A stretch of DNA of 31,949 nt, from positions 1 to 31,949 of the IMG/VR virus record IMGVR_UViG_3300032373_000078; one strand, 5' to 3'. Numbering within the stretch: the first letter of the stretch is position 1; every line of letters begins with the position of its first letter. Of this stretch, positions 2,130-31,914 are shown one piece after another. The DNA is from a virus (taxonomy: Duplodnaviria > Caudoviricetes). Position numbers and translations under genes: made by a program. Under the pieces are notes generated by a model. That model was not told the DNA's origin. It did no database searches and saw only the letters and a program-made list of their open reading frames with translations.

Positions 2130-2462
2130 ATGGCGTTCATCATGGCCGAGGGCGATCTTTCGCCGATCGTTGAAAAGACCTTGCAGGATGGTGCCGGCGC
2201 CGCGATCGATCTTACCGGCGCGATAAGCGTCACCTTCCTGGCCGAGGCGATCGATCCCGGCATTGCCTCGATCGAGGGCGCGGCGGTGGTGATGAATGCG
2301 GCCGGCGGGGTGGTGCGCTATCTCTGGGCCGCGGGCGATACCGCCGCGCCCGGGCTTTACCGGATGCGCTGGCGCGTGGTCTATTCCGACAGCAAGCCCG
2401 AGAATTTCCCCCAGGCGGGCACCGATTGGCTCGAGGTCACACCGGCGCTCGCCCCGGCATAG
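2130..2462 (+). CDS. BppU N-terminal-like (baseplate/fibre adaptor) protein
   Basis: Motifs GDLSP..TLQD..GAAIDLTGA..V.F, GVVRY.W.AGDT..PG.Y and a terminal FP match this family pattern. Confidence 0.65.
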   Translation: MAFIMAEGDLSPIVEKTLQDGAGAAIDLTGAISVTFLAEAIDPGIASIEGAAVVMNAAGGVVRYLWAAGDTAAPGLYRMRWRVVYSDSKPENFPQAGTDWLEVTPALAPA

Positions 2463-3460
2463 GCGCCCTCGCGAAAATCCCAGCCAAAATCAAGCAAACG
2501 CTGGCCGAGATCGGCCGGCGCGGTCTTGCGATAGCGCATCGCCATATCGGATTTGCGCCACCCGCCAAGATCGAGAAGCCCGCCGAAATCGCGGGTCTGG
2601 GCATAAAACCACGTTGCCCATGTGTGCCGCATCGTATGGGGCACCACATCGCGCCCGAGCCCGGCCGCATCGCACGCCTTGCGAAACGCGCCCGAGATCT
2701 GGCCGCCCCCATTTTCCCGAATGACATAGGGTTTGCCTTTCGGCGTCCGGGCGATCGGCCCGAGATCCGGCACGCCCGCGCCCAGAATCATCGCGCGCGC
2801 GCGCGGTGGAAGCCTGACCATGCGCGCCTCGCCGTTTTTGGCGCGGGCGATGAAGGCCTCGCCCGTGGCGGGATAAAATTCCTTTGCCTGGATCGCGAGC
2901 GCCTCGGAAACCCGGGTGCCCGCGCCAAGGCAAAACCCGATCGGCGCGGCAAGATGCGGATCGAGCGCGGCAAGAAGCGCCTCGGCCTCCTCGGGGGTGA
3001 GCCAACGGGTTCGGGCGTTGTTCTCTTTGCGTTTTTTCAAGCGCCGAAATTGGGCAAGGCCTTCATGGGCGGCGTGATTTATCACGGCCGAGATCGGGGT
3101 GATCACCTGGCGATTGATCGTCGCCGGGGCGGCCGATGGATAAAGCGCCGCGGCCGCCCGGTTCGCGGCCTGGTTGCCGATCTCGCCCAAAAGCGTCTCG
3201 GTGCCGAAATGCAAAAGCAGGGGCTCGAGAAACCGCGCCTCACCGCCGGCGATCATATAGGTCTCGGCGGCCTCGCAAAACGTCAGCGTGGCGCGCGGGC
3301 CATGGGCGTGACGGTTGCGGATCTCCTGTTCGCGCCGGTGGCGGATCGCTTCGGCTTCCCCGCGCGCGCGAGTTCCAGTGCTCTCGAATAGGCGGTGGCC
3401 CTGGACGGTGCCGCGCAAGTACCAGTTTTCGCGGCCCGGCCGCCGGATGAGCCTAAGCAT
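2381..3460 (-). CDS. int: Tyrosine recombinase / phage integrase
   Basis: Catalytic set GTRVSEAL (R), AKNG (K), HTMRH (HxxR), LGGW (W), MRY (Y); N-terminal arm-binding-like segment WYLRGTV...ESTGT. Confidence 0.95.
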   Translation of the reverse strand: MLRLIRRPGRENWYLRGTVQGHRLFESTGTRARGEAEAIRHRREQEIRNRHAHGPRATLTFCEAAETYMIAGGEARFLEPLLLHFGTETLLGEIGNQAANRAAAALYPSAAPATINRQVITPISAVINHAAHEGLAQFRRLKKRKENNARTRWLTPEEAEALLAALDPHLAAPIGFCLGAGTRVSEALAIQAKEFYPATGEAFIARAKNGEARMVRLPPRARAMILGAGVPDLGPIARTPKGKPYVIRENGGGQISGAFRKACDAAGLGRDVVPHTMRHTWATWFYAQTRDFGGLLDLGGWRKSDMAMRYRKTAPADLGQRLLDFGWDFREGAYAGASAGVTSSQSVPAWGKFSGLLSE

Positions 3461-5129: not shown

Positions 5130-5371
5130 GCGGCGTGCGCGCGGGCGTGCAATTGCCGGCGTCTCGCTTCCGGTTGCGTGACCCGATCGAAAACCCACTC
5201 ATGCGCAGTTGCAAGCTGCACCTGCGCCGGGTCTGTGGCGTGTGCGCGGATTTCGACGGCGAGTTGCGCCAGGAAGGTGAGGGCATGTGCCGGCGACATG
5301 CCGCGCCGACAGGCCCGCGCCGGGATGCGCGGGATTGTCCCGATTTCGATCGAAAGACGGCGCGGCCATGA
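5126..5371 (+). CDS. Small Cys-rich hypothetical protein
   Basis: ATGA overlaps at both ends; CGVCADF...C...CPDF. Confidence 0.6.
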   Translation: MSGVRAGVQLPASRFRLRDPIENPLMRSCKLHLRRVCGVCADFDGELRQEGEGMCRRHAAPTGPRRDARDCPDFDRKTARP

Positions 5372-6501
5372 ACGCGCTCGAGGATCGTCTGAGGGATGCA
5401 AAGGCAATCCCGATCCTCGAGATCGCCGCGCGCCTCGGGATCGAGGGGCTGCGCCGCACCGGGCGCGAGCATGTCGGGCCCTGTCCGGTCTGCGGCGGCA
5501 AGGATCGGTTTTCGATCAATGATGCCTCGGGCGTGTTCAATTGCCGGATCTGCGCGCGCGGCGGGGATCAGGTTGCGCTGGTCGAGCATGTGCTCGGGGT
5601 CGATTTCAAAAGCGCGATCGACTGGATCGACGGCGGGGCGGTCTCGGTGGCCGATGCCGCCGCGCAGGAACGGCGCCGGCGCAAATGGGCCGAGGCGGAA
5701 AAGAAAAAGGAACGCGCGGCGCAGGCCTATCGCGACCGGGCGACTGACCAGGCGCGCGCCATGTTTCGCGCGGCCGTCGATGGCCGGGGCACGCTGGCCG
5801 AGACCTATCTAGCCGCGCGCGGGATCCGGCTCGAAACCTGGCCGCCAAGCCTGCGGTTTATCGCGGCGCACAAGATGTATGGCAGGGCCGGCGATCGGTT
5901 CGCGGTGATCCATGAAGGCCCGGCGATGATTGCCGCGGTGCAAAATCCCTTTGGCCGGATTACGGCGGTGCACCAGACTTGGCTTGATCCCGACCGGCCC
6001 GGCCAGAAAGCCCGGATCCGTGATCGCGCCGGCGACCCGGTGCCCGCGAAAAAGGTGCGCGGGTCGAAAAAGGGCGGCGCGATCCGCTTCACGCGGGTTG
6101 GTGGCACCGGCGTCATGGTGATGGGCGAGGGGATCGAAACCACGCTTTCGGTGATGGTTTCGGGTGCCTGGCCGGGCGCGTGTTTCTGGGCCGGGGTGGA
6201 TCTCGACAATATGGGCGGGAAAATGATCCGGCTCTCGGGGCTCAAATGGTCGGGCCTGCCCGATCTCGGCGATACGCGCGCGTTCGTGCCGCCCGAGGAG
6301 ATCCGCAAGCTGGTTTATCTACAGGATGGCGACAGCGCGCCGGCAATGACCCGCGCCAAGCTGGAAGCGGGGCTTCGCCGGGCCGGCACGGTGCGGCGCG
6401 GGGTCGAGGGCCTGATCGCGCCGGCACCGGCGGGGCAGGATTTCAACGATCTGATCAAGAAAAAAACACACGGGGCAAGCGATGATGATGAGGGGCAGTG
6501 A
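5368..6501 (+). CDS. Phage DNA primase (P4-alpha-type zinc finger plus TOPRIM)
   Basis: GPCPVCGGKDRF...FNCRIC zinc finger; GEGIETTLS, QDGD and GQDFND TOPRIM motifs; start at the ATGA overlap (5368). Confidence 0.9.
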   Translation: MNALEDRLRDAKAIPILEIAARLGIEGLRRTGREHVGPCPVCGGKDRFSINDASGVFNCRICARGGDQVALVEHVLGVDFKSAIDWIDGGAVSVADAAAQERRRRKWAEAEKKKERAAQAYRDRATDQARAMFRAAVDGRGTLAETYLAARGIRLETWPPSLRFIAAHKMYGRAGDRFAVIHEGPAMIAAVQNPFGRITAVHQTWLDPDRPGQKARIRDRAGDPVPAKKVRGSKKGGAIRFTRVGGTGVMVMGEGIETTLSVMVSGAWPGACFWAGVDLDNMGGKMIRLSGLKWSGLPDLGDTRAFVPPEEIRKLVYLQDGDSAPAMTRAKLEAGLRRAGTVRRGVEGLIAPAPAGQDFNDLIKKKTHGASDDDEGQ

Positions 6502-8273
6502 GATCGATGACAGATGAGCGCGACGGACTGGAAAAGGTCAAGGCACTGGCCGAGGCGGCCGAGCCGGTCGGACCGGCTGAAACCGACCCGCCCGGGGCCG
6601 ATCCCGGCCCGCCCGATGATGGTGAGGAGGCCCGCGCGGCCGCGCTTCTCGCGCGCGGCGGGTCTTTCCCGCTAAACGATTTCGGCAACGGTCAACGGCT
6701 GATCACCTATTTCGGTGAAAATCTGCTTTTCGTGCCGCGGCTTGGCTGGTTCCGCTGGGATGACAGGCTATGGGCGCCCGATGAGGATGCGATCGCGGTG
6801 CGGGCCGACGCGCAAAAGATCGGCGGCAAGATCCTCGAGGAGGTCGCGTATCTGGCGCTTGAGCCCTGGGAGGACCAGGCTCTCGACCTGGCGCGCGATA
6901 CCGCATCCGAATTGGCCACGCTTGAGGCTGAAAGCAAGGGCGAGACCGATCCGCCGGCGCGGCTCAAGGAATTGCGCAAGACCGCCGATCGGGCGAATGA
7001 CATTCGCTCATACCTTGCGACCCGCAAGCGCGATCACCGCAACCACGCCAAGACAAGCGGCAATTCCGGCCGAATTGCCAATATGATGATCGAGGCCCAG
7101 GTGCAGCGCTGCGTCGGGATCGATGATCTCAATTCCGACAAGACGGCGATCAACACGCTGGGCGGGATCCTGCGGTTTCGCGGCCTGGTCGACGAACATG
7201 AGGCGAGTTTCGGCAACACCGATCCGATCTGGTGGTGCGAGATCTCCGAACATGACCGGGCCGCGCGCATGACAAAGATCTGCGATGCGACCTATGAGCC
7301 GGGGGCCAAAGCGCCCGAGTTCGAGGCCTTTCTTGAGCGGATCCAGCCCGATTTGCAAATCCGGGCCTTCCTGAAGCGCTGGTTCGGTTATTGCCTCACG
7401 GGGCTCACGACCGAACAAAAGACCACGTTTTTTTATGGTGCGGGCCGCAACGGCAAATCGACCCTGGTCGACCTTATCGCGAAAATCATGGGCGGCTATT
7501 CGACCACGATCCCGATCGAGAGCCTGACCGGGGCCGAGCAACGCAAGGGCTCGGACGCAACGCCCGATCTCGTGCGCCTGCCCGGCGCGCGTTTCGTGCG
7601 CGCCTCGGAACCCGAGCGCGGCACCGGGCTCAAAGAGGCGCTGGTCAAGCAACTGACCGGCGGCGAGGCGATCCTGGTGCGCCGGATGCAGCAGGAATTT
7701 GTCGAGGTTTCGCCCGAGTTCAAACTGACGATCCAGGGCAACTACCTGCCAAATATCAAGGGCGGCGACGATGGGATCTGGCGCCGCCTGGTCCTGGTCA
7801 ATTTTGATGAACAAATCCCGATCGATGAGGTTGATCCCCTGTTGCCCGAGCGGCTCTGGGCCGAGCGCGACGGGGTGCTGACATGGCTTGTCGAGGGCGC
7901 GCTCGAGTGGTTCAGGCTGGGCCTGGCGATCCCCGAGACGATCCAGACCGCGACCGAGAATTACCGCCAGGCGAGCGACTTCATGCGGGTTTTCCTGACC
8001 GAGGAATGCGAGATCGACGGCGAGACCTTCGAGGAGGGCAAGGACATGGCCGATGCGTTCAACGCCTGGATGATCGCGAGCGGACAGGCGACATGGCGGC
8101 GCAAGACGATCACCGATGCCCTGAAAGAGCGCACCGGCGTCGTGTTCGGCAAGGGCGGCGCGCGGTTCAAGGCGCACAAGCGCTCGGTGCATGGCTGGTA
8201 CGGGATCAGGATCAACGAGGAGGCCCGCAACCGCATCGCGGCGTTCTCCGACGAATTGAGGGCGCGGCGATGA
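6498..8273 (+). CDS. P4/D5-family SF3 helicase with C-terminal winged-helix (origin-binding-type) domain
   Basis: NDFGNGQRL (D5_N), Walker A GAGRNGKST, ASE, VKQLTGGE, GIWRRL motifs. Confidence 0.93.
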   Translation: MRSMTDERDGLEKVKALAEAAEPVGPAETDPPGADPGPPDDGEEARAAALLARGGSFPLNDFGNGQRLITYFGENLLFVPRLGWFRWDDRLWAPDEDAIAVRADAQKIGGKILEEVAYLALEPWEDQALDLARDTASELATLEAESKGETDPPARLKELRKTADRANDIRSYLATRKRDHRNHAKTSGNSGRIANMMIEAQVQRCVGIDDLNSDKTAINTLGGILRFRGLVDEHEASFGNTDPIWWCEISEHDRAARMTKICDATYEPGAKAPEFEAFLERIQPDLQIRAFLKRWFGYCLTGLTTEQKTTFFYGAGRNGKSTLVDLIAKIMGGYSTTIPIESLTGAEQRKGSDATPDLVRLPGARFVRASEPERGTGLKEALVKQLTGGEAILVRRMQQEFVEVSPEFKLTIQGNYLPNIKGGDDGIWRRLVLVNFDEQIPIDEVDPLLPERLWAERDGVLTWLVEGALEWFRLGLAIPETIQTATENYRQASDFMRVFLTEECEIDGETFEEGKDMADAFNAWMIASGQATWRRKTITDALKERTGVVFGKGGARFKAHKRSVHGWYGIRINEEARNRIAAFSDELRARR

Positions 8274-8734
8274 GCGCCTATGAGGCGGCCGGCAAGAGCG
8301 ATGACTGGTACACGCCGGCCTATGTTTTCGAGGCGCTCGGGCTTGAGTTCGATCTCGATGTTGCCGCGCCGGTTGACGGGCCGCGCCATGTCCCGTGCCG
8401 GCATTGGTGGTCGAGCGCGGGCCTGGAAAACCAATGGTTCGGGCTGGTCTGGATGAACCCGCCTTTCGGCCACCAGAAAACCAAGCGGGCCTGGCTCTCG
8501 AAATTTTTTGAGCATGGCAACGGGGTGGCGCTTGTTCCCGATCGTACCTCGGCGCCGTGGTTCCAAGAGTTCGCGCCGCGCGCAAATCTGATATGCTTTG
8601 TCGCCCCGAAAATCAAGTTCGAGCGGCCGGACGGGACCGTTGGCGCATCGCCCGGCACCGGCACGGCCTTGCTCGCGTCCGGGGTTCGGGCGGCCCAGGC
8701 CTTGCGCGCTTGTGGCCTGGGGATGGTGCGATGA
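8270..8734 (+). CDS. Phage DNA N6-adenine methyltransferase (orphan)
   Basis: SDDWYTP, FDLDVAA, VWMNPPF and LVPDRTSAPWFQ motifs; ATGA overlap with the helicase stop. Confidence 0.88.
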   Translation: MSAYEAAGKSDDWYTPAYVFEALGLEFDLDVAAPVDGPRHVPCRHWWSSAGLENQWFGLVWMNPPFGHQKTKRAWLSKFFEHGNGVALVPDRTSAPWFQEFAPRANLICFVAPKIKFERPDGTVGASPGTGTALLASGVRAAQALRACGLGMVR

Positions 8735-8946
8735 AAAAACCCGACCCGCGCGATCATCCTTGCGATCTTTGCGGCGATCCGCACGCGCCTTACGGGTTCG
8801 AGCGCGCCGGCGGCCGCGCCGCGCGCCGGCCGGGGCAGCGACGGCTCTGGGCCTGCAAGAAGTGCCGCGCGGCCGCCGAGGCGCGCAAGGAAGCGGTTGA
8901 CCGGCCGTTGAGTGATTTTCAACAGATCAACACAAGGGACGTATGA
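8731..8946 (+). CDS. Small zinc-finger-like protein
   Basis: HPCDLCG..APYGF...WACKKC; ATGA-coupled. Confidence 0.7.
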   Translation: MKKPDPRDHPCDLCGDPHAPYGFERAGGRAARRPGQRRLWACKKCRAAAEARKEAVDRPLSDFQQINTRDV

Positions 8947-8947
8947 A

Positions 8948-9298
8948 ATGCAGATTGGCGAAAAATACCTGATTACGGCCGAAGATTGGTTTTTTGCCCC
9001 GGACGGTGAAAACTATCGGGCGGTGTTCGGGACGGTTCACGGCGTAATTGATGCCGCCGAGGCGCTTGGGGTCAAGGCAAACGCCCGGTCAACAAACTGG
9101 TATGTGCTGATCGGCGATATGCTTCTGGCCGGTTGCAGGGTTCACTATGTGCTTCGGGCGGATCACTACAATCCAAGGCCGAGCGTGCTTGCGGAGATCG
9201 ATCACGATGGGTTGCGCCTTGTCGCGCAGAACGCAACGTCACGTATCTACAATGCCGATGCGACAGGTCTGATTGCACACGGCAAAGTGAGCACCTGA
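8948..9298 (+). CDS. Hypothetical phage protein
   Basis: Contiguous in the operon; globular composition (KYLITAEDWFFAPDG..YRAVFG). Confidence 0.75.
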   Translation: MQIGEKYLITAEDWFFAPDGENYRAVFGTVHGVIDAAEALGVKANARSTNWYVLIGDMLLAGCRVHYVLRADHYNPRPSVLAEIDHDGLRLVAQNATSRIYNADATGLIAHGKVST

Positions 9299-9313
9299 AT
9301 GCGGACACATCGA

Positions 9314-9700
9314 ATGGCCTACGCCGAACGCACAAAGGTTCCGGTTACACAGTCAAAGGCTGAGATCGAGAAGCTGGTCAAACGATACGGCGCGGATGCG
9401 TTCGCGGTCATGGAGCGCCAGGGGCGTGTTCAGATCGCCTTTTCGCTGATGGGCCGCAACATCCTGTTTCGCATGGACCTGCCCGAAGGTGCCCAGGCAG
9501 AGCGCTCGATCTGGCGCGCTATGACGCTGACGATCAAAGGCAAACTGGAAAGCGCAGAACGTGGCATTGAGACCTTCGAGGAAGCCTTCCTCGCGAACAT
9601 CGTCATGCCTGACGGGCGGACGGTTTCAGAGGCGACCCGACCAGCCATTGAGAACCACTACAAAGGGCGCGCGGACGTTCCGTTGCTGCCTGCTACTTAA
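9314..9700 (+). CDS. Hypothetical phage protein
   Basis: MAYAERTKVPV..SKAEIEKL...KGKLESAE.GIETFEEAFLANIVMPDGRTV, a recurrent phage early-gene pattern. Confidence 0.75.
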   Translation: MAYAERTKVPVTQSKAEIEKLVKRYGADAFAVMERQGRVQIAFSLMGRNILFRMDLPEGAQAERSIWRAMTLTIKGKLESAERGIETFEEAFLANIVMPDGRTVSEATRPAIENHYKGRADVPLLPAT

Positions 9701-9715
9701 AGGACCGGCTGACCA

Positions 9716-9862
9716 ATGGCTGAGAACTCAAGCATCGAATGGACAACCCACACGTTTAATCCGTGGATTGGATGCACGAAAGTCAGCGCCGCGTGTGACC
9801 ACTGCTATGCGGAGGCATGGGACAATCGCTTTGGCGGCAAACGCTGGGGGCCTCACGCACAT
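9716..9862 (+). pseudogene. Truncated Gp37/Gp68-family (DUF5131) gene, first ~48 codons only
   Basis: [33 protein letters not shown] is the family N-terminus (CX6CX2C); similarity ends at a C8 run and terminator, and the rest of the ORF is the antisense of the lipoprotein gene. Confidence 0.8.
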
Positions 9863-9874
9863 CCCCCCCCAATC

Positions 9875-9908
9875 AAGCCCGCCCCGATCGCCCCGGGGCG
9901 GGCTTTTT
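9875..9908 (+). terminator. Rho-independent terminator between convergent genes
   Basis: AAGCCCGCCCCG-loop-CGGGGCGGGCTT followed by a T run. Confidence 0.8.
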
Positions 9909-9913
9909 GCGTT

Positions 9914-10333
9914 CTAGGTCGGTTCGTCCGCGGGTTGCGTGTAAAACCGGCTCTCGCCCTGGTTTGTGTTGACCCAGCACGAGTTCGGTTGAATGTTCAG
10001 GCGCTGGTTCGGGCGCTTCATCGAGCCGAAACCGTTCTCGGTCGCCTCGACCGCGTTCTTGGTGCAATAGGGCAATTCGACCTGCGTATAGCCCTTGTCC
10101 CTCATGCAGATGCCCATCGCGGACTGGCGCAGCTTGTCGTTGCGATCCGTCGAATAGATCCAGAACGTGATGGGGTCGAAGGTCACTTGCGTGTTTGAAG
10201 GAATGGCCTGCGTCACCTCGGTCTGACAGGCCACCACGTCCCGGTTGTACCGGTCGAAGGTGACATTCGATTTCACGTAAAATTCCTGACTGACACAGCC
10301 CGACAGGGCCAGGAATGCGATAACGGCGCGCAT
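9914..10333 (-). CDS. Lipoprotein moron
   Basis: GGAGGA RBS; signal peptide [13 protein letters not shown] (lipobox); opposite strand to its neighbours; four further Cys. Confidence 0.8.
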
Positions 10334-10435
10334 GAGATCCTCCAACTTCGATTAATCAATCCGGCTACCTTGGCCGGGATGGCGGACGGCGGCAATGTGC
10401 AAAACTGGCGCGCTTGCCCTTGCATGGCCACGCAT

Positions 10436-10516
10436 CGCACAATAAAAGGTGCGGATCACAACATAAAAGGCAAGCAGCATGATTACATTGACAGAGGCCG
10501 CGCGCGCGGGCAGCGT
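10436..10516 (+). promoter_or_regulatory. Operator-like palindrome and promoter of the C4/antirepressor operon
   Basis: CGCAC-AATAAAAG-GTGCG at 10436-10453; TTGACA at 10488-10493 (the -10 element is weak). Confidence 0.6.
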
Positions 10517-10610
10517 CCCGGTGCAACCTGCGAAATGGTGGGTTGTCGGGTTTGGAAGCTCGTTTGTCTCTAGGCGCTCTGAAAGCCGCGCCATTCGTCG
10601 CGGCTTTGCT

Positions 10611-10689
10611 ATGTCCGGGCGCAATGGGGTGCCTTCGGGCACGCCGGTTTCTAGAGGCCGGTCTTCCAACCTGTTGTTGCCCGGGCACC
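10611..10689 (+). ncRNA. C4-type antisense RNA (P1/P7 c4, P4 CI-like); ends approximate
   Basis: Cloverleaf-like fold: GTGCC-TTCG-GGCAC hairpin, CCGGT..GCCGG stem with CTAGAG in the loop, then CTTCCAA. Complementary targets TTGGAAG (10552, 10693) and CTCTAG (10568, 10721) lie on both sides. Confidence 0.85.
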
Positions 10690-10736
10690 CGTTTGGAAGC
10701 GGCCCCGGGTTCAATTTGAACTCTAGGAGGCCCTTC

Positions 10737-10958
10737 ATGGCTGACACAATCAATCCGCATAACCTGGGAATGGATCTGGCCTATGCCGCCACCCTGACCC
10801 GCCACATTCAACACCTGGTGCTCGAGGCCGGCGGCGCGGCCGATCGCACCGTGCTCGACGTGATCGAGGGGCTGGCGCACTTCCTCGCGCGCATCCTCGG
10901 CGTGATCGCCACGGATCTCGAGGAGATCGAGGCAGTGAAAGGCGGTCATCATGTCTGA
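10737..10958 (+). CDS. 73-aa ORF in the icd/kil position of a c4-icd-ant operon
   Basis: AGGAGG RBS (10725-10730) overlapping the downstream CTCTAG target; stop overlaps the BRO gene start. Confidence 0.75.
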   Translation: MADTINPHNLGMDLAYAATLTRHIQHLVLEAGGAADRTVLDVIEGLAHFLARILGVIATDLEEIEAVKGGHHV

Positions 10959-11751
10959 TCTGTCTTTCGTTTTCAATACGCGCCGGGTGCGCGTGATCCT
11001 CGATGAGGCCGGTGAACCCTGGTTCGTCGCAAAAGATGTTTGCGAGGTTTTGGGCACCGGCCTGCCTGCCAATCATCTTCGCAATTATCCGGACTGTGAA
11101 AAGGGTGTGTGTTCGGTACCTACCCCCGGCGGACGCCAGGAAGTGCTCACGGTCAGCGAAGGCGGGCTCTATCGTATGGTCGTGAGGTCTCGCAAACCCT
11201 CGGCCGAGCAGTTTCAGGCCTGGGTGTTCAACAAGGCTCTGCCCGAGATCCGGCGCACGGGTTCCTATCAGGGGCCGCCACAAGCTGAGGACGTGTCCAG
11301 CCCGCCCGCCGCGCCCGCACTCGACCCGCTGGCGGTCGAAATGGATGACGACATGCGCGACTGGCTGGCGATGGTGCGCGAGGCGCGCATTTCCTACGGG
11401 CGCAAGGCGGCGCAACGGCTTTGGGCGCGATCGCCCCTGCCCGCGGTCTCGACAACACCGCCAGACAAGTCGGACCTGGGCCGCGCGATCCGGGAGTTCC
11501 TTGATAAACAATGTGTTATCACCGGAAGTTCGGCCGATTTCGTGTCGCTTGGCGATCTGACCCGCGCCTATGGCAAATGGGCGATCAGCACCCATCGCGA
11601 GGTTCCCGCCGGTCGCGGCTTCAACCGCGCCCTGGCCGCGCTGGCGGTGGCCTATGTCCATCCCGAAACGCTGGAAGTGATCCGCCCGCACAAGCGCAGT
11701 CACCACGGCTATGTCGGTCTCAGGTTGCGCAAGGCCTCTGCGGCCGCCTGA
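10951..11751 (+). CDS. BRO-N antirepressor-like protein fused to a D5/P4-helicase-type C-terminal DNA-binding domain
   Basis: GEPWFVAKDVCEVLG, VSEGGLYRMVVRSRKPSAEQFQAWV..LPEIRRTGSY (BRO-N); the last ~85 aa align by eye with the helicase C-terminus. Confidence 0.85.
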   Translation: MSDLSFVFNTRRVRVILDEAGEPWFVAKDVCEVLGTGLPANHLRNYPDCEKGVCSVPTPGGRQEVLTVSEGGLYRMVVRSRKPSAEQFQAWVFNKALPEIRRTGSYQGPPQAEDVSSPPAAPALDPLAVEMDDDMRDWLAMVREARISYGRKAAQRLWARSPLPAVSTTPPDKSDLGRAIREFLDKQCVITGSSADFVSLGDLTRAYGKWAISTHREVPAGRGFNRALAALAVAYVHPETLEVIRPHKRSHHGYVGLRLRKASAAA

Positions 11752-11776
11752 TCCCTCGCCTCAGCGCCGTTATCTG

Positions 11777-11808
11777 GCCCGTTCCGGTTAGCACCGGGGC
11801 GGGCTTTT
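11777..11808 (+). terminator. Rho-independent terminator after the BRO gene
   Basis: GCCCGTTCCGGT-TAGC-ACCGGGGCGGGC-TTTT. Confidence 0.75.
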
Positions 11809-11915
11809 CGCGTTTCCGGGGCCGCCTGGTGAGGCTCTCGCGGCCAATCTGCGCGGCCGGTTGGCCGGTGGTGCGGGTCGCCCGGCCGGGCGCGCTCGGG
11901 CCTCGTTGATTCAAT

Positions 11916-12270
11916 CCCCGCACCCCGCACCCCGGTTTATTTAGATCGTCCCGCGTTGAAAAACTCCCTTTCTCCCTGATTTCAGGTTCAAAACTCCCTG
12001 ACGATCAGGGCAAGTTTCGGAAACAAAAACAAGGGGTTGAGATTTCGCGACCGTGTTTCAGGGAGCGCAGGGAGAAAATTCACGGGGCTTATTTCTATAG
12101 AGGGGCAAGGGGTGCGGGGTCAGGATTTGCTCACACGTCAGGCGACAAAAAACCTCCCTGCGCTCCCTGATCCCGGAAAGCGGCGTTAATTCAATGACTT
12201 ATAGGTTTGAAACCTCCCTGATTACTGTTTTGAAAACTCCCTGAAAATCATAAAACTCCCTGAGTAATCA
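11916..12270. repeat. Iteron array, putative replication origin
   Basis: CTCCCTG forward at 11972, 11994, 12154, 12163, 12214, 12237, 12256 and inverted (CAGGGAG) at 12059, 12068; ORF-free and relatively AT-rich. Confidence 0.8.
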
Positions 12271-12305
12271 ACATATGGCGCGGCTACATTCGATCCGCAC
12301 AAGAT

Positions 12306-13028
12306 ATGGAGCAGGCCAAAATGCAAACCACACCGCACCACCCTCGGGCGCTGATCGAGGGGATCAATATCGCGATCATCGCCCGTCGCGCCGCCCGTCG
12401 CGCCGGGGTTGGGCAGGGTGATGGCGCCCGGCCGGTGCCGGGCCTTGCCGCGCGCCCGGTTGTCCTGTCAGAGATCGCGGCGGAAACCGGGCGGTTCGAT
12501 GAGCCTGCCACACCGCCCGGTTACAGGACGGCGCGCCGGCGTGAGCCGATGCTATTGGCGCGCCTGCCCGAGAAAGACACGCGCCGGATTGCCGCCCGAA
12601 TCTTCGCCGATACCTGCGAAAAGATCGGGGCGAGTTCATGTGCCGCGATCGAGGGGAGTATTTCTAGCGCCGGTATTCCCGATGGTGGCGCGACAACAAA
12701 AATCAAGCACGCGCAGCGCCTCGCGGCCTCGCTGAAAGCGATCCGCCACCTGGTGCGCACCGAGGGCGAAAAGGGCGGTATCGCATGGCGGCCCCGGGTG
12801 GTCCTGCCATTGGGCCGCCCATCGCCAAAACGCCATGAAATAAAGGCGCTTGACCTGTTGGTCGCGGTCGCGATCGAGGGCCGGGACATTGCCGAGATCC
12901 TGCGCCGCGCCGGGTGGTCAAAGCAGGCGCACACGACCCGGTTGCTTGGCGCGGCGGCGCTCCTGATGCTCGACGATCTGGCCGAATGCTATGGGCTTGG
13001 GCGCATGGTACCGCGCGAAAGTTCTTGA
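12306..13028 (+). CDS. Putative late transcription regulator (Q-position; C-terminal HTH-like domain); start uncertain
   Basis: Last early gene before the packaging genes; LLVAVAIEGRDIAEILRRAGW...LDDLAECYGL; TTGACG overlaps its stop. Confidence 0.6.
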   Translation: MEQAKMQTTPHHPRALIEGINIAIIARRAARRAGVGQGDGARPVPGLAARPVVLSEIAAETGRFDEPATPPGYRTARRREPMLLARLPEKDTRRIAARIFADTCEKIGASSCAAIEGSISSAGIPDGGATTKIKHAQRLAASLKAIRHLVRTEGEKGGIAWRPRVVLPLGRPSPKRHEIKALDLLVAVAIEGRDIAEILRRAGWSKQAHTTRLLGAAALLMLDDLAECYGLGRMVPRESS

Positions 13029-31824: not shown

Positions 31825-31914
31825 GGAGATGTGGCCGAGTGGTCGAAGGCGCTCCCCTGCTAAGGGAGTAGGCCCGGAAGGGTCTCGATGGTTCGAATCC
31901 CTTCGTCTCCGCCA
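31825..31914 (+). tRNA. tRNA-Ser (anticodon GCT), 90 nt, encoded CCA
   Basis: Acceptor GGAGATG/CGTCTCC-G-CCA, anticodon arm CTCCC-CTGCTAA-GGGAG, long variable arm, TTCGAAT loop. Confidence 0.96.

Follow-up and report, generated by a model that had tools for sequence, protein, structure and literature searches.

The locus considered here raises the question of why a phage gene of the antirepressor type should end in a domain resembling the C-terminus of the phage's own helicase, and why it should lie in front of an array of short repeats. The window, by which we mean the whole stretch of DNA that was analysed, is a linear virus record of 31,949 bases that is 72% complete. Since it carries genes for an integrase (2381-3460) and a repressor together with terminase, portal, capsid and tail genes, besides those for a primase, a D5-type helicase and a tRNA-Ser, it belongs to a temperate tailed phage. 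The nearest named kin of its helicase are found in Rhodovulum, Leisingera, Cribrihabitans, Epibacterium and similar genera, and the host is likely to be a member of this group. The tRNA-Ser(GCT) lies at the end of the record (31825-31914), and an ORF of 379 aa (966-2102), with 78-80% G+C in its middle, lies between the tail-fibre genes and the integrase and gives a weak, repeated signal of a CI-type HTH. The replication genes, both on the + strand, are a Zn-ribbon/Toprim primase (5368..6501; Pfam Zn_Ribbon_Prim, DUF7146 and Toprim_3; phrog_510) and a D5/P4-alpha-type SF3 helicase (6498..8273; Pfam D5_N and DUF5906; phrog_1156, phrog_6088), which ends in a winged helix (WH) placed by alignment and profile-profile comparison at about 7983-8225, residues 496-576. 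Helicases of this type bind the origin with their C-terminal WH (PMC4889955).

The gene in question (10951..11751, + strand) encodes a regulator of 266 aa, in which Pfam, alignments, an AlphaFold model and profile-profile comparison delimit a Bro-N domain (residues 13-98), a conserved two-helix linker (about 133-164) and a D5-type WH (about 180-262). The Bro-N domain is recognised as PF02498 (E 2e-19, 70 bits against a cut-off of 25.6) and the protein matches anti-repressor PHROGs; by this annotation it would act as an antirepressor, through the inactivation of a repressor. The homology between its C-terminus and that of the helicase, proposed by eye in the initial annotation, is borne out: regulator residues 180-263 and helicase residues 496-576 share 22 of 84 positions (about 26%; E 2e-6 in pairwise alignment), and the comparison of a profile of 22 regulator-type domains with one of 29 helicase WH domains gives a probability of 99.9% and an E-value of 1e-32. 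The tail of the window protein matches no family of Pfam or PHROG; the Pox_D5 cut-off is reached by its relatives L003, L006, L047 and P0004, and the window copy stays below it. In an AlphaFold model of the C-terminal part, built from 5 sequences (pLDDT 77.5), the two-helix linker is followed by a three-helix WH. Compared with 48,161 solved chains, this WH came closest, at Z values that are moderate throughout, to RFX5 (Z 9.0, rmsd 2.6, 75 residues aligned), RFX1 (Z 8.2, rmsd 2.2, 69 aligned) and, third, the origin-binding domain (OBD) of P4, 1ka8 (Z 7.8, rmsd 3.0, 80 aligned), the next row having a Z of 6.9. Foldseek returned nothing for the same model at E<=1e-3, with a D5-family viral helicase and RFX ranked first, and a sequence search of the PDB with a 5-row alignment gave no meaningful match. 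The predicted fold is thus of the RFX/P4-OBD type, in agreement with the origin-binding-domain-like fold that had been suggested for the tail; the description of the domain as stand-alone has to be given up, since it is fused to an antirepressor-type N-domain.

The regulator had also been described as gated by an antisense RNA, and the layout of the cassette, all on the + strand, conforms to this. A TTGACA at 10488..10493, which also precedes the C4 RNA in L002, L003, L006, L021 and L047, is likely the -35 box of the cassette promoter, although a consensus promoter and terminator scan of the window does not list it. There follow an isrK-like upstream target region (10523..10610) with TTGGAAG (10552) and TCTAG (10569), scoring 33 bits with the Rfam isrK model and hence below its cut-off of 50, and the C4 antisense RNA itself (10607..10692), recognised by its fold and by RF01695 at 68.5 bits against a cut-off of 45. 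The motifs in its loops, TCTAG (10650) and CTTCCAA (10663), are complementary to targets both upstream and downstream; the downstream targets (10693..10729) are TTGGAAG (10693) and TCTAG (10722), of which the second overlaps the ribosome-binding site belonging to a 73-aa icd/orf45-like ORF (10737..10958). This ORF, which has no PHROG family and is matched by a small ORF at the same place in relatives, overlaps the start of the Bro-N gene at 10951, and the two are likely to be translationally coupled. RNAs of the C4 class keep the downstream gene off in the lysogen, and by analogy the Bro-N regulator would be kept off in a lysogen of the window phage. Past the end of the gene, a hairpin of 13 bp with a short run of T (11776..11812, + strand; -24.7 kcal/mol), 84% like a hairpin at 9883-9913, is probably a terminator shielding the origin; it does not appear in the consensus terminator scan of the window.

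The repeats stand where they had been placed, right after the Bro-N gene and about 3.7 kb from the helicase. All nine copies of CTCCCTG in the 32-kb window, seven on the + and two on the - strand, fall in 11972-12262, with a chance mean of 2.8 per whole window and none of 100 shuffles reaching nine; the array begins 3.7 kb past the helicase and 220 bp past the Bro-N stop. Repeat counts, fold and motif positions delimit a likely replication origin, not assigned to either strand, at 11916..12262, with the nine CTCCCTG in both orientations and one CTCCCT, and we infer that the C-terminal WH of the helicase reads this array. The stretch 11940-12280 has 52% A+T, being AT-richer than the genome, and the region contains inverted 17-mers (12058-12074 and 12154-12170). 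A further inverted pair, CCCCGCACCC / GGGTGCGGG, at 11916 and 12110, is common to the origin-like regions of relatives and is kept in L003, L005, L013, L014, L046, L047 and L153 though the short repeats differ. In the loci selected by their helicase, the short-repeat cluster usually lies right after the helicase or before a homologue of the gene at 12306, and the origin belongs to the helicase lineage, with arrays at the same place in most relatives. The gene itself (12306..13028, + strand) encodes a conserved 240-aa protein with homologues in about 20 loci and no PHROG family; it always follows the origin in the window's phage subgroup, and a role as late-gene regulator would be a guess.

Between helicase and origin lies a variable slot (8270..10333), defined by Pfam and PHROG matches and by relatives with other inserts or none. 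In the window it holds a dam methylase, three small ORFs, a DUF5131 gene, a terminator-like hairpin (9875-9905) and a minus-strand lipoprotein-like ORF (9914-10333); in relatives it holds methylase genes, a block that by eye resembles restriction-modification genes (L005), or nothing. Homology of the DUF5131 (Gp37-like) gene (9716-9913) extends only over the first 47 codons or so, and the gene breaks at the hairpin of 9883-9913, the one resembling the hairpin after the Bro-N gene; break and hairpin may mark the left edge of an inserted cassette.

The reading that we prefer, and to which we give an even chance, is that the RNA-gated regulator restrains replication in the manner of Cnr of phage P4. 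Upon opening of the C4 gate, in early infection or at induction, the Bro-N/WH regulator would be made; its WH, devoid of a motor, would compete for the repeats of the origin or pair with the helicase's own WH, and the outcome would be a brake on origin firing, similar to the action proposed for Cnr towards P4 alpha. The binding of the regulator to array or helicase, as well as the negative sign of the effect, is an inference.

The fusion recurs as an optional family. Single-sequence searches with the C-terminal part of the regulator found the window's own protein and no viral locus, and relatives of the tail were reached only via helicase-selected loci and profiles. A word-index search with the 5-row alignment gave 4 longer proteins, and when a profile was run against 1.84 billion representatives, 430 of them matched at E<=1e-3; among the best 150 of these, 68 carry linker and WH at a length of at least 230 aa, each representing an intact cluster at less than 50% identity to the others, and 16 are shorter. 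The N-domains of 58 scanned matches are Bro-N, Rha, P22_AR_N or unnamed, and the ESM Atlas holds a Bro-N cluster of 148 members with Pox_D5 on 13%. Of 31 viral loci selected by their helicase, 5 have the fusion gene (they represent 4 distinct phages, and a few of the loci are incomplete); of 56 genome loci, 2 have it, and a sample of 401 genomes from one family, with 10 candidates scored per genome, yielded it in the seed genome only. In all ten D5-type loci with context, which take in the window and the annotated Rhizobium phage RR1-A, the fusion gene is the last before the repeat array, and in nine of the ten a C4 or C4-like RNA lies upstream. The recurrence of the Bro-N/D5-type architecture and its co-occurrence with a downstream array, which the initial annotation had proposed as a check, are both borne out. 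An antirepressor of Gordonia phage Mellie, which aligned over its full length with RR1-A Ant but scored with no profile, was dropped.

This distribution also bears on the role of helicase loader that had been suggested for the protein. It argues against an essential loader, because most relatives lack the gene and some of them have an equally displaced origin; on the other hand, since the gene is dispensable in most relatives, the role of a modulator fits. A non-essential version, a positive accessory factor, made early, that aids recruitment or loading of the helicase now that its gene and the origin lie 3.7 kb apart, would have its expression coincide with the lytic decision and would account for the position as last gene before the origin in ten of ten loci, but we consider it unlikely, given that most relatives do without it, including L005 and L074 with the origin displaced by 3-4 kb, and that the related SaPI helicases are described as self-loading (PMC9371898).

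The WH is not confined to Bro-N proteins, and its other carriers bring in a different explanation. D5-type WHs are fused also to unrelated small proteins, with Gp49-like and Arc domains, and the domain is thus a mobile DNA-binding module. Fusions with an N4 Gp49/Sf6 gp66-type domain occur on the minus strand of L006 (1837-2445), L046 (1615-2217; the N-domain has a Pfam match) and L047 (1625-2245), at some 6 kb upstream of the helicase gene; further small carriers are found in L122, L126 and L070, and P0009 (857 aa) contains seven tandem matches to WHs of the RFX/D5 type. In L146 two regulators (81-1115 and 9620-10483) have near-identical tails and N-domains that are Rha-like in one and Bro-N-like in the other, which is direct evidence of N-domain swapping. 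The WH could accordingly be one more exchangeable part, taken from a helicase and conferring DNA binding on an antirepressor or transcription regulator of the Bro network, and would then act at promoters or with the repressor and not in replication. Proteins of this network swap domains and often regulate genes (PMC10111431); the N-domain of the fusion varies freely, and the origin region could also hold the promoter of gene 12306. We regard this as a somewhat unlikely explanation, and what speaks against it is the correspondence between the tail and the resident helicase, first of all at the level of the helicase family, although shared descent explains part of it.

In fact, two genomes carry Bro-N and the same linker with a tail different from the D5 WH, and this second tail matches the C-terminus of another primase-linked NTPase (phrog_21086/phrog_35358) resident in the same prophages, the gene of which is followed by its own repeat array. 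A suspicion that the family is DUF927-like found no support in Pfam, where it has no match, and it is named by the two PHROGs only. When loci were picked by the linker alone, the 23 loci obtained encoded 24 such proteins, of which 5 end in the D5 tail and 19 in the second one, and a C4-like RNA was present in 17 of the 23. The type of tail equals the family of the resident helicase in all 12 of these loci that show a helicase or part of one (5 D5, 7 second), a figure that counts loci and not events, so that two captures could suffice. Loci with the second tail are L123/L127, L124, L135-L138, L140-L144, L146-L151 and L154; they form a second, larger group of C4-gated Bro-N/Rha genes, often inserted among structural genes. 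Over the whole domain, the matching of tail and cognate helicase in this family was not significant (p 0.079, 8 pairs). The fusion gene of the second family lies mostly away from the origin, and adjacency is therefore not required; a tie of the homologues to origins holds for the ten D5-type loci and for the most part not for the second family. Because the slot takes many unrelated inserts and because of this second family, a place beside the origin counts for little as evidence of function.

The second level of correspondence is that of the wing, for which the age of the domain has to be considered. In a tree of 44 domains the window regulator WH falls together with the domains of six other regulators (95/95), apart from that of its own helicase; a single origin of all ten regulator domains takes 3 changes on the tree and is neither shown nor rejected (AU p 0.198), and several regulator domains have long branches. 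A recent duplication or gene conversion from the window helicase was ruled out by the identity of 27%, the separate clade and the use of different Ser codon families in the two wings. The term duplicate, used for the tail in the initial annotation, is therefore right as to homology and wrong as to a recent copy: it is an old homologue grouping with the domains of other regulators. Capture of the 3' end of a helicase in front of an origin is likely to be the history of the fusion under every reading, and a non-functional relic of such an event, in which a C4-ant cassette would have been joined to the 3' part of an older helicase gene, had been offered as the alternative. The tail does sit where the end of the helicase would be, as the helicase lies directly before the repeat array in many relatives, and the long branches would suit a domain without function. 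However, the WH is under purifying selection in relatives (dN/dS 0.13 between L006 and L047, with 15 synonymous and 8 non-synonymous changes), the 68 clusters are intact, the tail ends at a domain border, its wing fits the present helicase and in the second family the fusion persists well away from the origin, all of which makes a relic very improbable.

Compared over 14 columns, the wing of the regulator has its own helicase as first of 34 in 6 of 10 pairs, the window included, and at ranks 3, 8, 10 and 12 in the other four. The pairs are few and mutually related, and the permutation p rises from 1e-4 (8 pairs) to 0.007 when two distant pairs are taken out (6 pairs) and to 0.04 when the closest pair is also out (5 pairs). 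In the window the two wings are each other's best match among 83 further regulators and 81 further helicase tails; the margin is small (49 against 44 and 46), and the Ser codons of the two are of different families. For the non-wing part the own helicase ranks 26 of 34 and for the predicted recognition helix 15 of 34. The sequences thus indicate a regulator wing similar to that of the resident helicase. This similarity is a second point against a generic DNA-binding module, even if shared descent explains part of it, whereas the recognition helix, which in the window does not match that of the own helicase, is a point in favour of that explanation.

The wing may also be related to the repeats. 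Across 47 loci examined, of which 3 were under the count threshold, 5 gave no wing and several wings starting with R-K were misregistered, the helicase residue after K-x-S in the wing correlates with the base before TCC: with D or N this is a purine in 12 of 13 loci and with V, I or T it is the pyrimidine C in 5 of 6 (Fisher p 0.003, counting the loci as independent and ignoring descent), which possibly reflects a recognition code. The window helicase has V at this position and its repeat is CTCCC; the window regulator has H, which also occurs before a GATCCC array in L153 and speaks against the reading preferred here. The imperfect match to the own helicase at this one position, together with the fact that wing tips among the regulators cover the same range as those in the helicases of other phages, might suggest an incompatibility or competition factor, blocking the origins of related co-resident or superinfecting phages with slightly different repeats. 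This seems quite improbable to us, as the C4 gate should keep the regulator off in the lysogen and the regulator wing is closest to the own helicase and not to those of others.

As regards the pairing of the two WHs, which the restraint of replication may involve, a model of the regulator WH in complex with the helicase WH reached a score of 0.62, the best of 3 controls having 0.00; in calibration, 116 of 157 solved pairs passed the mark used for such scores, as did 2 of 215 mismatched ones. The runs agree in at least 98% of contacts, with a partner pLDDT of at least 86. The closest contacts run from wing to wing and from the last strand of one wing to the first strands of the other, in what may be read as a strand swap that would involve the same segment as the co-conserved wing; a like homodimer has been solved (1ka8). 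The model raises the odds only slightly, because homologous domains can model as swaps without real binding and the controls, being unrelated proteins, do not address swaps between homologous domains. The predicted contact would also suit a positive accessory factor.

Taken broadly, temperate phages of alphaproteobacteria would repeatedly have equipped antisense-RNA-gated antirepressors with the domain by which their own helicase reads the origin, the helicases concerned belonging to at least two families, and would have kept the wing matched, and such a dominant-negative mimic of the initiator would couple the lysis/lysogeny switch to origin firing; this wider proposal we put forward tentatively, at somewhat less than even chances. 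Genes for Bro-N, Rha and similar "antirepressors" abound in phages, and their functions are mostly untested. Should the proposal be true, a sizeable subfamily of them would be replication-control proteins, the immunity RNA switch would be wired directly to the origin, and the principle of P4 Cnr would hold in full temperate phages and for a second family of helicases as well. With helicase wing, regulator wing and repeat available as matched sets, the code by which a D5-type WH reads DNA also becomes directly testable.

No description of a fusion between Bro-N and a helicase WH was found in the open literature searched, and the elements of the locus can each be compared with a known system. 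The gate has the layout of the P1 c4, P4 CI-seqA (PMC10111431) and Gifsy-1 isrK-orf45-anrP (PMC4825925) cassettes, with promoter, upstream target, C4 RNA, downstream target over the ribosome-binding site and a small ORF overlapping the antirepressor gene, but the window antirepressor ends in a helicase-type WH and not in KilA-C/ANT or similar. The array resembles the SaPI Rep/PriRep origins, which consist of 6-12 short repeats in both orientations with an AT-rich centre and are read by the C-terminal WH of the helicase (PMC9371898); the window array likewise has short repeats in both orientations and is AT-richer than the genome. The SaPI array follows rep directly and no extra component is known there, whereas the window has 3.7 kb of inserts and a second WH. 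A named phage with a comparable locus is Rhizobium phage RR1-A, in which a D5 helicase, a C4-like RNA, a small ORF and Ant (YP_008130212), with Bro-N, linker and a WH-like tail, are followed by a GGACAG array; its tail is divergent, giving no score with the D5-WH profile and being placed by alignment, and Ant is annotated only as anti-repressor.

The comparison that carries the proposed function is with P4, in which Cnr was reportedly proposed to be a WH protein that heterodimerises with the OBD of alpha and lies within the operon controlled by the CI RNA. The cnr gene controls copy number (PMC8628076), and the likeness extends to the D5-family helicase with its C-terminal WH and to the match of the regulator model with 1ka8. 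The tail of the window regulator matches no Cnr family in Pfam or PHROG, and unlike Cnr the regulator has a tail recognisably homologous to the helicase domain, behind an N-domain of antirepressor type, and belongs to a full temperate phage, where it is optional among relatives and lies beside the origin.
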